From assembly GCA_048882505.1 (NCBI GenBank), contig JBHLRO010000015.1, positions 1 to 32,000 on the forward strand: 32,000 bases of DNA, in the 5' to 3' direction. This DNA comes from Candidatus Thorarchaeota archaeon. GTDB lineage: Archaea > Asgardarchaeota > Heimdallarchaeia > Hodarchaeales > Hodarchaeaceae. A model generated the notes under the pieces. The model worked only from the letters and a program-made list of their open reading frames with translations, was not told where the DNA came from and ran no database searches. Of this stretch, positions 1,387 through 20,906 are shown piece after piece (positions within the stretch are counted from its first letter, which is position 1; each line of letters starts with the position of its first letter). Position numbers and translations under genes: made by a program.

Positions 1387-1943
1387 GAAAGCAAGGCCTC
1401 CAGATTTATGTACTAGATTCTACGGCCTTTATCCGGCTTGACTTTCCTGATCTACTTTTTTGGGGGAAATCAACAACGATTGAGTTCTATACCACGCCTG
1501 GCATTGTTTCAGAACTAAAGGATTTCCGTTCACGAGTAAACCTAGACCTTTTGAGTCAATCAACAAAGTTCAGTGTTACTGAACCTTCATCTAGCCTTGT
1601 ACAAAAGGTTAAACAAGAGATTCAGGTTTTTGATCCACAAACCTCCCTTTCTCAAGTCGATATTGGAGTAATTAGTCTAACGCTCGAATTAAGAGACCGA
1701 TATAATGGGATGGTGGCCTTGATTACAAGCGATTACCGCCTCCAAAACGCTGCTGGCCATCTTAAAGTCCCTATTCACGCTTTGACCGACCAAAAAATTC
1801 TCCAGCTCCGCCGCTGGCAGCTCAAATGTAGAAGTTGTGGGGAGACAACTGATATTGGTGGACAGATCTGTCCGTCTTGTGGCGGACAATTATCAGCTGT
1901 CCGTCTTTCAGCATCAAGGGGAAATATCGGAGGCAAAGAATAA
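1383..1943 (+). CDS. nob1: Nob1-family PIN endonuclease with C-terminal Zn ribbon (SSU rRNA maturation)
   Basis: PIN motifs VLDSTAF, SQVD and TSDYRLQN; CRSC...CPSCGG ribbon; GTGA overlap with nadK. Confidence 0.9.
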   Translation: MRKQGLQIYVLDSTAFIRLDFPDLLFWGKSTTIEFYTTPGIVSELKDFRSRVNLDLLSQSTKFSVTEPSSSLVQKVKQEIQVFDPQTSLSQVDIGVISLTLELRDRYNGMVALITSDYRLQNAAGHLKVPIHALTDQKILQLRRWQLKCRSCGETTDIGGQICPSCGGQLSAVRLSASRGNIGGKE

Positions 1944-16196: not shown

Positions 16197-17306
16197 TCAC
16201 GGGGTAGCTGAGGGGACTGACCACCTTAAGAGAGCAATAATTCCGCCGAACGTCTTCAATTTACCAGCAATTTCACTGCTAGATGGTACAATTGAAATTC
16301 GGCCCCTTATCCGTTCGATCTCGTGCAGTAAGTTGTTTATATGCTCGGGATGGATTTCCGCTGTCCCCTGTAACCAAGAATCGATAAGAACGACCGTTTC
16401 GATAGCTCCCGTGCCAGCTACTTCCTTTATCCCTTGAAATCCATAAGAAATGTCAGTACTCCCGTGATTTAGCCTTTTAAGAAACTCCTCGATTATCCGT
16501 TGATCTTCCAAATAACGAAAATCCTGCGCAAGCTTATCAATGGCCTCCATCTGTAATAATTCCGATAGGCCCACTCTATTTCCCCCACTCAAAGAGCCAA
16601 CAATCACGATATTTAGGGCTTCTTTGGGAAATTTCTCCTTCAATACAGTAGCCAGCCGCTCTTTAATAAATCCTGGCCCACCGATCACTATGTTTTTTGT
16701 TACTGGAATCACCTTTCGGTCGATAATTCCGATTATCATGTCAAAAAAACCTTGGGTCTGTCTAAGACGCGTTTTGTCTTTTGCAAGCTTCCGTGAAATG
16801 TGCGATTTCTCCTGCCCAAGAATATTTAATTTATAATTGTCTAACAGACCAATACAGGCTTCTGTTTTGTCTACCGCAATCAAACAAATTTGTGGCTTAC
16901 GACTAGCCTCCTCCGCCTCCTCAAGAAGTCTTAAGTAGTAGTTTGTCCATCCTTGAGGCTTAATCAAGGTTACTGTTTCTGTTAATTCTATATTAAGCGT
17001 ATGATATGTCCCTAGAGAGACGTGTTGCTCAGGCCCTCTATAGATTTTCCCCTTCACCCTCAACCGATTGCTTACCGAGCTATCCTGAAACGCAAAATCC
17101 TCAACTTCAATTCCGAGAGTCATGGTAATCCGCTGGCTCTCCTCTCCAGATCGGCCATCACTCCCTGATCGCCGAATTCTTCTACTTGTTTTCGCAACCA
17201 CTTGATCCCCAGGAGCGATAAGATTGGATAAGATATAAAGATCCGTGGAAGTTTCAATCCTCAAAACAATACGGTGATTCTTGAGATCTTTCTTAAGAAT
17301 GCGCAT
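16197..17306 (-). CDS. pelA: Pelota/Dom34 ribosome rescue factor
   Basis: DLY.LSNLI.PGD, RLRVKGKI, LGTYHTLNI, GPGF, FGGIIALLRW. Confidence 0.93.
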   Translation of the reverse strand: MRILKKDLKNHRIVLRIETSTDLYILSNLIAPGDQVVAKTSRRIRRSGSDGRSGEESQRITMTLGIEVEDFAFQDSSVSNRLRVKGKIYRGPEQHVSLGTYHTLNIELTETVTLIKPQGWTNYYLRLLEEAEEASRKPQICLIAVDKTEACIGLLDNYKLNILGQEKSHISRKLAKDKTRLRQTQGFFDMIIGIIDRKVIPVTKNIVIGGPGFIKERLATVLKEKFPKEALNIVIVGSLSGGNRVGLSELLQMEAIDKLAQDFRYLEDQRIIEEFLKRLNHGSTDISYGFQGIKEVAGTGAIETVVLIDSWLQGTAEIHPEHINNLLHEIERIRGRISIVPSSSEIAGKLKTFGGIIALLRWSVPSATP

Positions 17307-17325
17307 GAATCATCCCGTACTTAAA

Positions 17326-17682
17326 CTAGTATAGCTTGAGCGTTGATGTAATCTTCTCGACATCTTCTCTGACATGGGGCCCGATACCGAGAGCTGTAGT
17401 TGTCCCCGGTGGGAGTTGTGTCCTACCCGCATCATTGATCTTCTCAACGATAACTCCAGTGGATCGTAGTTGCTTCTCCAAATCCAATAACTCGGTTTCG
17501 GAATCGACCCCAAGAATAACTTTCATTTGGCCCGTCCTCCACCAGGCTTCGAACTGGTCTCGTTTTTCTCGTAGCACTTTTACCGCTGCGGCCACGCTGG
17601 CATGCGATGCCTGCGCCGCGGCCTTACCTCTCGACATCTTCAGGTCTTTTCGAAGGATGATAACTTGTTTTGGTTCTACCAT
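17326..17682 (-). CDS. pth2: Peptidyl-tRNA hydrolase Pth2
   Basis: KQVIILRKDLKMSRGKAAAQASHA, DAGRTQLPPGTTTALGIGP. Confidence 0.96.
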   Translation of the reverse strand: MVEPKQVIILRKDLKMSRGKAAAQASHASVAAAVKVLREKRDQFEAWWRTGQMKVILGVDSETELLDLEKQLRSTGVIVEKINDAGRTQLPPGTTTALGIGPHVREDVEKITSTLKLY

Positions 17683-17762
17683 TCTGTGATCCTTATTCAG
17701 TCATAATACTAGTACTACCCTAACGCCATCCCATAGACATAGATCTGCACAACTTCAGCAGT

Positions 17763-17870
17763 ATTGACAAGCTTTCGGTGAGGTACATGAACATCATTAA
17801 CTCCAAGCTCAAAGGTGTCCTAATCCGAGCTGGGCTTCAGTTTAGGTCAGTTTCGTCACAGCTTGTCAAT
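17763..17870 (-). ncRNA. Box C/D methylation guide sRNA (dual guide, 108 nt)
   Basis: 11-bp terminal stem; C GUGACGA (17853-59), 12-nt guide, D' CUGA (17837-40), 39-nt hairpin, C' AUGAUGU (17791-97), 12-nt guide, D CCGA (17775-78). Confidence 0.82.
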
Positions 17871-18010
17871 TGGCCCTTTCACTTAGAATGGTTTCTTAAG
17901 TTTGCCTTGAATAAAAAGCCCAGGTTCTCCACGAAGGAACCACGATATCTCCAAATCGGAGACCCAATGTCTTCCCCTCCAATTGATTCTTGTTTGATTC
18001 CAAAGGCCGT

Positions 18011-18529
18011 TTAGTTGAGTAATTCCATCCCTTTTGTGACCTTAATTCGGCAAGGCACTGGAAACTTGGCCTTGCCTCGACGTAAGGCATCTTTTGCAAC
18101 CTCTACATTCTCTAAATCTGTTCTGACAAAGAGAAGTCTCTGCCCTTCGTAAACTCTCGCCGCTACACTGATTACCTTACCAAAGGCCTTACGCATACCG
18201 TTCTGTATTCGATCCGCGCCAGCTCCAGTCATCATTTTATTCTCACGAATGCGATGATGCGGATAAACACAAATTCGATAGTGGTAACTCTCTCTACCGA
18301 GTTTTCGGGTCAGAAAACGGTTTACGTGGATACGTGCGGCTTCGAGAGCGTTGTGACTGATTTGGCAGCGTTCATCAGTGATGAGAGAGATTTCAATGGG
18401 GAAATCTTTACCTGGGTCTCCCAAGTCAAAGCTGCGGATTTTGGGGTCTGGGCCCCCTTTGATATACTTTTTTCGAGTGTAGGGAGGTCTGTCAACGCGA
18501 GTATAACACGATGCCGGTCGCTTGCCCAT
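18011..18529 (-). CDS. rpl10e: Ribosomal protein uL16 (L10e)
   Basis: MGKRPASCY, ALEAARI, YPHH.IRENKM.TGAGADRIQ.GMRKAFGK. Confidence 0.98.
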   Translation of the reverse strand: MGKRPASCYTRVDRPPYTRKKYIKGGPDPKIRSFDLGDPGKDFPIEISLITDERCQISHNALEAARIHVNRFLTRKLGRESYHYRICVYPHHRIRENKMMTGAGADRIQNGMRKAFGKVISVAARVYEGQRLLFVRTDLENVEVAKDALRRGKAKFPVPCRIKVTKGMELLN

Positions 18530-20845: not shown

Positions 20846-20906
20846 GTTTCTCAGACTGGGACGGCGTCGTCACGGACTTCGGTTAAATATTAATCATCAT
20901 CGAAAC
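20846..20906 (-). ncRNA. Box C/D methylation guide sRNA (61 nt), overlapping the 3' end of rnp2
   Basis: GUUUC-G-AUGAUGA-(11 nt)-CCGA-AGUCC-GUGACGA-(12 nt)-CUGA-GAAAC: canonical K-turn with a 5-bp terminal stem. Confidence 0.88.

Follow-up and report, generated by a model that had tools for sequence, protein, structure and literature searches.

A Hodarchaeales box C/D guide RNA gene predicted to direct methylation on both strands of 16S rRNA helix 34

The DNA considered here, termed the window, is a stretch of 32,000 nucleotides (nt) from the genome of an Asgard archaeon of the order Hodarchaeales (GCA_048882505.1, contig JBHLRO010000015.1, positions 1 to 32,000). The minus strand of positions 17763-17870 bears the full layout of a box C/D small RNA (sRNA), and is likely to be the gene for a guide sRNA that would direct methylation of helix 34 in the 16S ribosomal RNA (rRNA) of this archaeon. 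The two guides of this single RNA are complementary to opposite strands of helix 34 in the 16S rRNA of the host, and the two nucleotides that they specify are the equivalents of sites methylated in yeast and human rRNA. The gene is kept in 21 genomes of its genus and also in another family of the same order, and one of its guides changes in step with its target in more distant relatives. An earlier reading made from the letters of the window alone (the sequence-only reading) had proposed this assignment and called the molecule a probable Asgard RNA, which the taxonomy of the host bears out.

Anatomy of the sRNA gene

Read from its 5' end, the gene is composed of the following parts, where N+5 denotes the nucleotide opposite the fifth guide base upstream of box D or D' and rRNA positions follow Escherichia coli:

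17860..17870, minus strand: 5' stem strand, 11 nt, fully reverse-complementary to 17763-17773 and paired in the minimum free energy fold
17853..17859, minus strand: box C, GUGACGA, which departs from RUGAUGA by a C at position 5
17841..17852, minus strand: D' guide AACUGACCUAAA, 12 nt, complementary to the 3' strand of 16S helix 34; N+5 is a G, the equivalent of E. coli 1197
17837..17840, minus strand: box D', CUGA
17798..17836, minus strand: D'-C' spacer, 39 nt, a hairpin that would close C'/D' with a stem like that of a kink-turn (k-turn) rather than with a short k-loop
17814..17820, minus strand: apical-loop heptamer GGACACC, a candidate accessory antisense element
17791..17797, minus strand: box C', AUGAUGU
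17779..17790, minus strand: D guide UCAUGUACCUCA, 12 nt, complementary to the 5' strand of 16S helix 34; N+5 is a G, the equivalent of E. coli 1051
17775..17778, minus strand: box D, CCGA, a variant of CUGA with C at position 2
17763..17773, minus strand: 3' stem strand, 11 nt, separated from box D by a single A

The predicted fold consists of the terminal stem and the spacer hairpin, with an energy of -31 kcal/mol (z = -3.4 against dinucleotide shuffles). Boxes C and D adjoin the 11-bp stem and each retains its GA dinucleotide, as a k-turn with tandem G.A pairs demands, while the internal C' and D' boxes expected of an archaeal C/D sRNA are both present and both guides have the customary length of about 12 nt. 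The sequence-only reading had placed a C/D sRNA with an 11-bp stem, four boxes and two 12-nt guides on this strand, and its coordinates and sequence agree with those given above.

Targets on the host 16S rRNA and their eukaryotic equivalents

The 16S gene of the host is available as a partial copy on contig C16, outside the window, where the contig end cuts the gene so that it starts near model position 385. The assembly is fragmentary: 23S is represented by one full copy on C57 and several partial pieces on other contigs, the rRNA contigs being C16, C57, C38, C52 and C45. Positions were converted to E. coli numbering through alignment with rrsH of E. coli K-12.

Against 16S and 23S together, the best match of the D guide is GGAGGUGCAUGG, with 11 contiguous pairs (9 Watson-Crick and 2 G-U), and that of the D' guide is GGUAGGUCAGUA, with 9 Watson-Crick pairs. 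These segments occupy host 16S index 686-696 and 842-850, equivalent to E. coli 1048-1058 and 1195-1203, and both belong to helix 34. The N+5 nucleotides correspond to E. coli 1051 for the D guide and 1197 for the D' guide, and each faces its guide in a C-G pair, such that both guides combine at least 9 bp of complementarity with a Watson-Crick pair at the position to be modified. The duplexes have predicted energies of -17.6 (D guide) and -14.4 kcal/mol (D' guide) on the host 16S. The D and D' guides of one RNA are thereby directed at the opposite strands of a single helix, the arrangement of the long-range double-guide 'chaperone' sRNAs (Dennis et al. 2015), with N+5 sites 155 nt apart in the host 16S and 146 nt apart in E. 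coli numbering.

Yeast C1274/A1427 are equated with E. coli C1054/A1196 (PMC13231172), and positions 1051 and 1197 are therefore the equivalents of yeast G1271 and G1428. Known modifications of helix 34 at the decoding centre include Gm1271, guided by snR40 and equivalent to human Gm1328, and Gm1428, guided by snR56 and equivalent to human Gm1490 (PMC2794176). The E. coli 1051 and 1197 equivalents are hence homologous to the nucleotides served in eukaryotes by SNORD32-33/snR40 and SNORD25/snR56, respectively. All of this had been anticipated in the sequence-only reading, namely a D guide with 11 bp including 2 G-U pairs aimed at 1051, a D' guide with 9 bp aimed at 1197, the yeast and human equivalents of both, and a distance of about 146 nt between sites that lie on opposite strands of helix 34 next to C1054 and A1196. 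The two pairings hold on the 16S rRNA of the host itself, the eukaryotic numbering is right according to the two sources just cited, and the alignment with E. coli agrees with the placement of the sites.

Conservation within the order

Handles beginning with G, C, L and f denote the genomes, contigs, loci and families of this analysis. Among the 21 further species-level genomes in the genus, BLAST and a covariance model recovered one copy of the sRNA from each of 20 (E = 1e-12 to 1e-17), and the only genome without a copy is a 70% complete assembly. In the host (G000), in all 20 orthologue-bearing genomes of the genus and in G022, which represents the second family of the order, the gene lies between rpl10e and pth2, with an eRF1-family gene following. 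Relatives had been named in the sequence-only reading as the place to look for homologues, and these now include syntenic copies across 21 genomes of the genus as well as the second family.

The alignment of the host sequence with the 20 genus orthologues shows conservation concentrated in the functional elements. None of the 21 copies departs from CUGA in box D' or from UGAUGU in box C', whose first base is A in 20 of them and G in one (G010); box C conforms to RUGAUGA in 19. Each guide has 10 invariant columns of 12. Mean column identity is just 81%, with boxes and guides near invariant, a freely variable spacer and flanks that cannot be aligned. The D' guide is 13 nt long in three copies (G001, G010 and G013) and in G022, and the long terminal stem is confined to the host species and G016, the other orthologues having 0-5 bp. 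Three other genus members have an assembled 16S, and both target sequences there are the same as in the host. The AT-rich and divergent regions upstream of the orthologues yielded no clear promoter consensus.

The two deviant boxes of the window are themselves linked. The change of U to C at position 5 of box C occurs with the change of U to C at position 2 of box D, the pair being C/C in three genomes (G000, G016 and G022), U/U in 19 and mixed in none, and these two bases face each other at the 3b.3n position of the k-turn (U.U to C.C). The C/C pair is an ordinary variant, since it is common in published sRNAs of Pyrobaculum and Methanopyrus.

The C/D sRNA that G022 carries at the same site between rpl10e and pth2 has a terminal stem of 5 bp, and its spacer is a hairpin of 27 nt. 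The guides of this sRNA, UAACUGACCUGCU and GCGUGCACUACU, share the cores and N+5 registers of those in the window and differ in their flanks.

Relatives outside the order and guide-target covariation

Degenerate box-guide-box patterns were searched over 83 genomes of the class and then over 268 phylum genomes with a completeness of 85% or more. Within the class, the 1197 guide is confined to the two Hodarchaeales families. The 1051 guide is found also in sRNAs of families f3 (G044) and f7 (G069), where it serves as the D' guide alongside other D-guide partners:

G044, about 1490-1570, minus strand: L149, compact C/D sRNA; D' guide for the 16S 1051 equivalent, D guide A-rich
G069, about 1499-1560, plus strand: L150, compact C/D sRNA; D' guide for the 16S 1051 equivalent, D guide for about E. 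coli 1078

The 16S sequence immediately 5' of this target differs among the families at positions 1048-1050, reading GGAGG in f1 (the window's genus), GGUAG in f3 and GCUGG in f7. The f3 and f7 guides differ correspondingly at positions 2-4, so that each pairs over 11 bp with the 16S of its own genome and keeps N+5 on the 1051 equivalent. Duplexes with the own target are 4.5-5.1 kcal/mol more stable than cross-pairings; the D guide of the host, for instance, reaches -17.6 kcal/mol on its own 16S compared to -12.7 and -12.9 kcal/mol on the 16S of the other two families. Guide-target covariation, which the sequence-only reading had put forward as a check, is thus present in the form of compensatory changes of the 1051 guide across three families of Heimdallarchaeia. 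A comparable compensation of the 1197 guide in G285, at position 3 of its target, was discarded, as the 16S of that assembly, which is 12% contaminated, gives only 8 bp.

Among the 268 phylum genomes, the 1197 guide recurs in two further families, f24 and f11. In f24 it is the D guide and has an unrelated partner; the f24 sRNAs L161 (G285) and L162 (G290) share a D' guide containing GCGCUCC. Family f11, of another Asgard class, has a dual helix-34 sRNA in both of the genomes that pass the completeness filter, with the 1197 guide first and a guide for the 5' strand of helix 34 second:

G088 and G089, around 1501, minus strand: L159 and L160, respectively, compact dual helix-34 sRNAs with a 3-nt D'-C' spacer

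The f11 D guide is displaced by 1 nt and would therefore methylate the 1050 equivalent on a 16S of the GGAGG type. No 16S was recovered from assemblies G022, G023, G088, G089 and G090.

A side observation concerns two of the 16S genes recovered. The matches at G007:C9:1695-3919 (L113) and G069:C111:3664-5455 (L158) span 2225 and 1792 nt, respectively, compared to a model of 1478 positions, which points to inserted stretches of about 750 nt and 300 nt, possibly introns.

An internal hairpin with a candidate third contact to 16S rRNA

A short D'-C' spacer forming a k-loop is typical, if not defining, of archaeal sRNAs, and the window's sRNA instead has a 39-nt hairpin in this place, an unusual trait on which the sequence-only reading does not comment. 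Spacers of 35-37 nt are found in the other members of the genus except G016, and the lengths in G022 and f11 are 27 nt and 3 nt. The hairpin is well supported by covariation: 93.4% of cells are paired, seven of the eight pairs have changed on both sides, none of 500 shuffles reached the covariation score, and slid controls pair in only 22-48%.

The apical loop combines an invariant GGACAC with a final C kept in 20 of the 21 copies, and its remaining bases vary. This heptamer, GGACACC, is complementary to GGUGUCC of 16S at E. coli 1081-1087 (h36/h37), 23 nt 3' of the D-guide duplex and in collinear orientation, and the duplex energy in the host is -18.0 kcal/mol. In several sub-lineages the complementarity grows to 9-11 Watson-Crick pairs, in differing directions (shuffle p 0.000-0.005, 64-nt window), and the unrelated spacer of G022 holds an 8-mer complementary to the adjacent 16S segment at index 727-734 (p = 0.014). 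Weighing against such a contact, the core is just 7 nt long in about half of the genus (p ~0.06) and is absent as such from G022. Since only this 7-nt core pairs in about half of the genus, accessory pairing of the hairpin loop with 16S rRNA is plausible rather than established, and on the sequence comparisons it has perhaps somewhat less than an even chance of being real.

Two other matches of the hairpin were set aside. An alternative loop site, GUGUCCGA at 16S index 387-394, is not conserved in the 16S of G001, and an 8-nt match of the 3' strand of the hairpin at index 738-745, found in a subset of genomes and situated in the covarying stem, was treated as chance.

Genomic neighbourhood and other C/D sRNAs

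The genes that flank the sRNA are as follows:

18011..18529, minus strand: rpl10e (uL16), upstream neighbour; Pfam Ribosomal_L16, E = 1.2e-31
17326..17682, minus strand: pth2, downstream neighbour; Pfam PTH2, E = 4.4e-39
16197..17306, minus strand: three-domain eRF1-family gene after pth2; Pfam eRF1 domains 1-3

The Pfam matches of the two adjacent reading frames (Ribosomal_L16/L10e and PTH2) confirm the location between rpl10e and pth2 that had been claimed from sequence. The third gene is read as a putative pelota from its eRF1-domain match, which is not a family-level result. A guide gene for rRNA modification is thus seated among genes of the ribosome and of ribosome rescue, directly downstream of a ribosomal protein gene (16197-18529, minus strand).

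No Rfam family matches the sRNA at gathering thresholds. At E values up to 10, the only matches are generic C/D families scoring 8-16 bits against cut-offs of 38-55, and RF00054, RF01188 (SNORD25/snR56), RF00133 and RF01201 (SNORD32-33/snR40) are not among them. A full-length covariance model (R1) found nothing in the class outside the genus, the model being too specific because of the hairpin. BLAST matches outside the genus (L031-L033) reflect chance similarity to the region of box C'. The exact D-guide pattern, run over 400 phylum genomes, gave box-less matches outside the genus that were read as chance and are probably coding DNA, and pattern matches in G077, G349, G360 and G030 were likewise set aside as coding-like or box-less DNA.

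A second compact C/D sRNA candidate is located in the window at 20851-20900 on the minus strand. It consists, in order, of AUGAUGA, an 11-nt guide, CCGA, a 5-nt spacer, GUGACGA, a 12-nt guide and CUGA, and its D' guide forms 11 bp (10 Watson-Crick) with 23S at index ~656. A regular expression for a proposed D-guide target at the P-loop nucleotide G2251 had no match in the assembled 23S of C57. This candidate and the helix 34 sRNA are the only full patterns in the host genome with a good rRNA match.

Proposed mechanism

The host encodes the proteins that such an RNA would require. Fibrillarin is present (Pfam Fibrillarin, E = 1.3e-78), with Nop5 directly upstream of it (Pfam Nop, E = 1.8e-64), and two genes of the L7Ae family match Ribosomal_L7Ae. 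Once transcribed, the sRNA would fold into two k-turns, with the terminal stem closing C/D and the internal hairpin closing C'/D', and these would recruit L7Ae, Nop5 and fibrillarin into a ribonucleoprotein (RNP). The 12-nt guides would each anneal to one strand of helix 34, the D guide to 1048-1058 and the D' guide to 1195-1203, placing G1051 and G1197 opposite the fifth guide base upstream of the respective D-type box for 2'-O-methylation by fibrillarin. The methylated sites would flank C1054 and A1196 at the A site. As helix 34 cannot form while the guide duplexes exist, the RNP must work on 16S rRNA that is still nascent and unfolded, and it probably keeps the two strands, which lie 155 nt apart, together in a single particle until release, which would amount to a chaperone role. 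A third contact, at 16S 1081-1087 and without a guiding function, may come from the loop of the internal hairpin.

Weighing the assignment

Several observations tell against a helix 34 methylation guide. Each guide match is weak when taken alone, with 150 of 3000 shuffled D guides (5%) and 236 of 3000 shuffled D' guides (8%) equalling the real one, and the D' duplex of the host extends over only 9 bp and leaves guide positions 1-2 unpaired. D'-C' spacers of 27-39 nt depart from the short, symmetric archaeal norm. A regular expression for the full C/D pattern returned five matches in the host genome, of which two are credible, and a genome-wide count of box-guide-box half-units with rRNA complementarity gave 29 compared to 26 in shuffles and no further sRNAs; with so few recognisable C/D sRNAs, the C/D system of the host appears to be sparse. 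Finally, the targets in G022 and f11 are inferred from the 16S of relatives. The combined evidence nevertheless amounts to more than chance, because both guides match opposite strands of one helix, both are conserved, and guide and target covary.

Of the competing explanations, the strongest is that of a genuine C/D RNP which serves chiefly, or exclusively, to chaperone the assembly of helix 34 or to hold its place, with one or both sites paired and left unmethylated. Sequestration of the strands is intrinsic to the arrangement, as both duplexes are mutually exclusive with helix 34, and archaeal guides that form duplexes yet bring about no methylation are on record, with chaperone roles proposed for them (Dennis et al. 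2015, PMC4644070). This explanation is nonetheless unlikely: N+5 is a Watson-Crick C-G pair in every orthologue with a known 16S, the 12-nt box spacing needed for methylation is kept, and the N+5 register survives the turnover of guide flanks in G022, G044 and G069.

It is less probable still that only the D guide, directed at 1051, is functional and that the complementarity of the D' guide to 1195-1203 is weak or vestigial. The short D' duplex and its 8% shuffle rate would fit such a view, as would the wide distribution of the 1051 guide in Heimdallarchaeia with varied partner guides. The D' guide is, however, just as conserved as the D guide, with its 10 invariant columns of 12; it is kept in G022 with better predicted pairing; the 1197 guide recurs in sRNAs of f11 and f24; and sR32 of Pyrobaculum calidifontis (Pca) points to the same nucleotide when this published sRNA is paired by hand with the published 16S.

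That there is no RNA gene here at all, and that the motifs are intergenic coincidences or a protein-binding k-turn in the 3' untranslated region of rpl10e or the leader of pth2, is very improbable despite the lack of an Rfam family match and the known affinity of L7Ae for mRNA k-turns (PMC5539422), given four boxes and two guides conserved across 22 genomes amid unalignable flanks, a covarying spacer stem, guides that covary with 16S, and a full C/D pattern with good rRNA targets at only this and one other locus in 4.3 Mb.

Comparison with known guide RNAs

Among archaeal sRNAs, sR17 (h28) and sR15 (h30) of Nanoarchaeum equitans likewise carry D and D' guides for the two strands of one long-range 16S helix (PMC4644070, Table 3, Fig. 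5), and Dennis et al. 2015 propose that they both methylate and bring distant strands together (PMC4644070). A double-guide archaeal C/D sRNA holding both strands of a long-range 16S helix is therefore already described, including the idea of a folding helper (PMC4644070). The Asgard sRNA differs from the N. equitans sRNAs in serving h34 at the decoding site, in a host that is probably mesophilic rather than hyperthermophilic, in targets that coincide with eukaryote-conserved 2'-O-methylated nucleotides, and in its long hairpin between D' and C'. What is new is the host lineage, the coincidence with two sites conserved since LECA (last eukaryotic common ancestor), and the long D'-C' hairpin with its possible extra pairing to h36/h37.

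Individual strands of helix 34 are served by sRNAs of other archaea, as judged by hand pairing. The D guide of Pca sR32, UACUGACCUGCG, is directed at the same G, the 1197 equivalent (Dennis et al. 2015, supplement). The D' guides of Pca sR49 and of Ignicoccus hospitalis (Iho) sR310 pair with the same GGAGGUGCAU segment as the Asgard sRNA in a register one nucleotide to the 5' side, which points to the 1050 equivalent (Iho G1026 in the numbering of Dennis et al. 2015). Unlike the Asgard sRNA, those of Pyrobaculum and Ignicoccus divide the strands of helix 34 among separate RNAs with nearby second targets.

The eukaryotic small nucleolar RNAs (snoRNAs) U25/SNORD25/snR56 (Gm1490/Gm1428) and U32/SNORD32/snR40 (Gm1328/Gm1271) share both target nucleotides with the Asgard sRNA, but they are two separate RNAs, snR40 has other targets as well, and neither Rfam nor covariance models detect similarity between them and the Asgard sRNA. 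The SNORD25 and SNORD32 clans trace to LECA (PMC3511168). Yeast snR40, snR55 and snR56 carry additional complementarity to rRNA, and elements of this kind are situated mostly between D' and C' (PMC3116282); the candidate loop pairing of the Asgard sRNA resembles these extra base-pairing elements. A precedent for a long internal hairpin in archaea is sR103 of Methanococcus maripaludis, whose D'-C' spacer of about 34 nt is read as self-complementary (Dennis et al. 2015, supplement). Its guides and targets are unrelated to those of the Asgard sRNA. To our knowledge, no conserved loop element has been recognised in sR103. A search of non-subscription literature found no description of C/D sRNAs of Asgard archaea.

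Evolutionary reading and significance

Hodarchaeales are reportedly the archaea closest to eukaryotes, a placement attributed to Eme et al. 2023. On the question of whether individual eukaryotic snoRNAs have archaeal ancestors, Hoeppner and Poole placed dozens of families of these RNAs in LECA and noted only a handful of archaeal sRNAs at equivalent positions, with no convincing homology (PMC3511168). A table in a 2024 review gives no Pyrococcus (P. abyssi) counterpart for Gm1271/Gm1328 or Gm1428/Gm1490 (PMC11542601).

The 1051 register is found in four families of Heimdallarchaeia, and the 1050 register in f11 and two species of Thermoproteota. The dual helix-34 arrangement is common to Hodarchaeales and f11, and is therefore either older than the order or arose twice. 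The dual sRNA, present in at least two Asgard classes, could conceivably be the archaeal forerunner of the LECA clans SNORD25/snR56 and SNORD32-33/snR40-55, to be split later, an idea offered here as speculative and rather unlikely. The ancestral state that the sequence-only reading suggested likewise stays a hypothesis. Counting against such ancestry, the partner guides of the 1051 guide in f3 and f7 and of the 1197 guide in f24 differ from those in the window, differences that fit the known fluidity of guide combinations. A shared guide sequence does not in itself permit homology to be inferred, because the conserved target dictates the guide. Were the forerunner reading true, the register would have shifted to the eukaryote-type 1051 within Heimdallarchaeia, the hairpin and its possible extra pairing would belong to Hodarchaeales, and traits resembling those of eukaryotic snoRNAs would predate eukaryogenesis.

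Independent of descent, both LECA-conserved sites of helix 34 are predicted targets of one conserved Hodarchaeales sRNA, a prediction backed by guide-target covariation that supplies concrete rRNA positions and a defined RNA for experimental study. In yeast, -1 frameshifting increases when Gm1428 is lost (PMC2794176), and as the two sites flank C1054 and A1196 of the A site, their modification probably tunes decoding. In the long internal hairpin and the extra pairing that it may provide, an archaeon would show an early example of a snoRNA trait of eukaryotic style.

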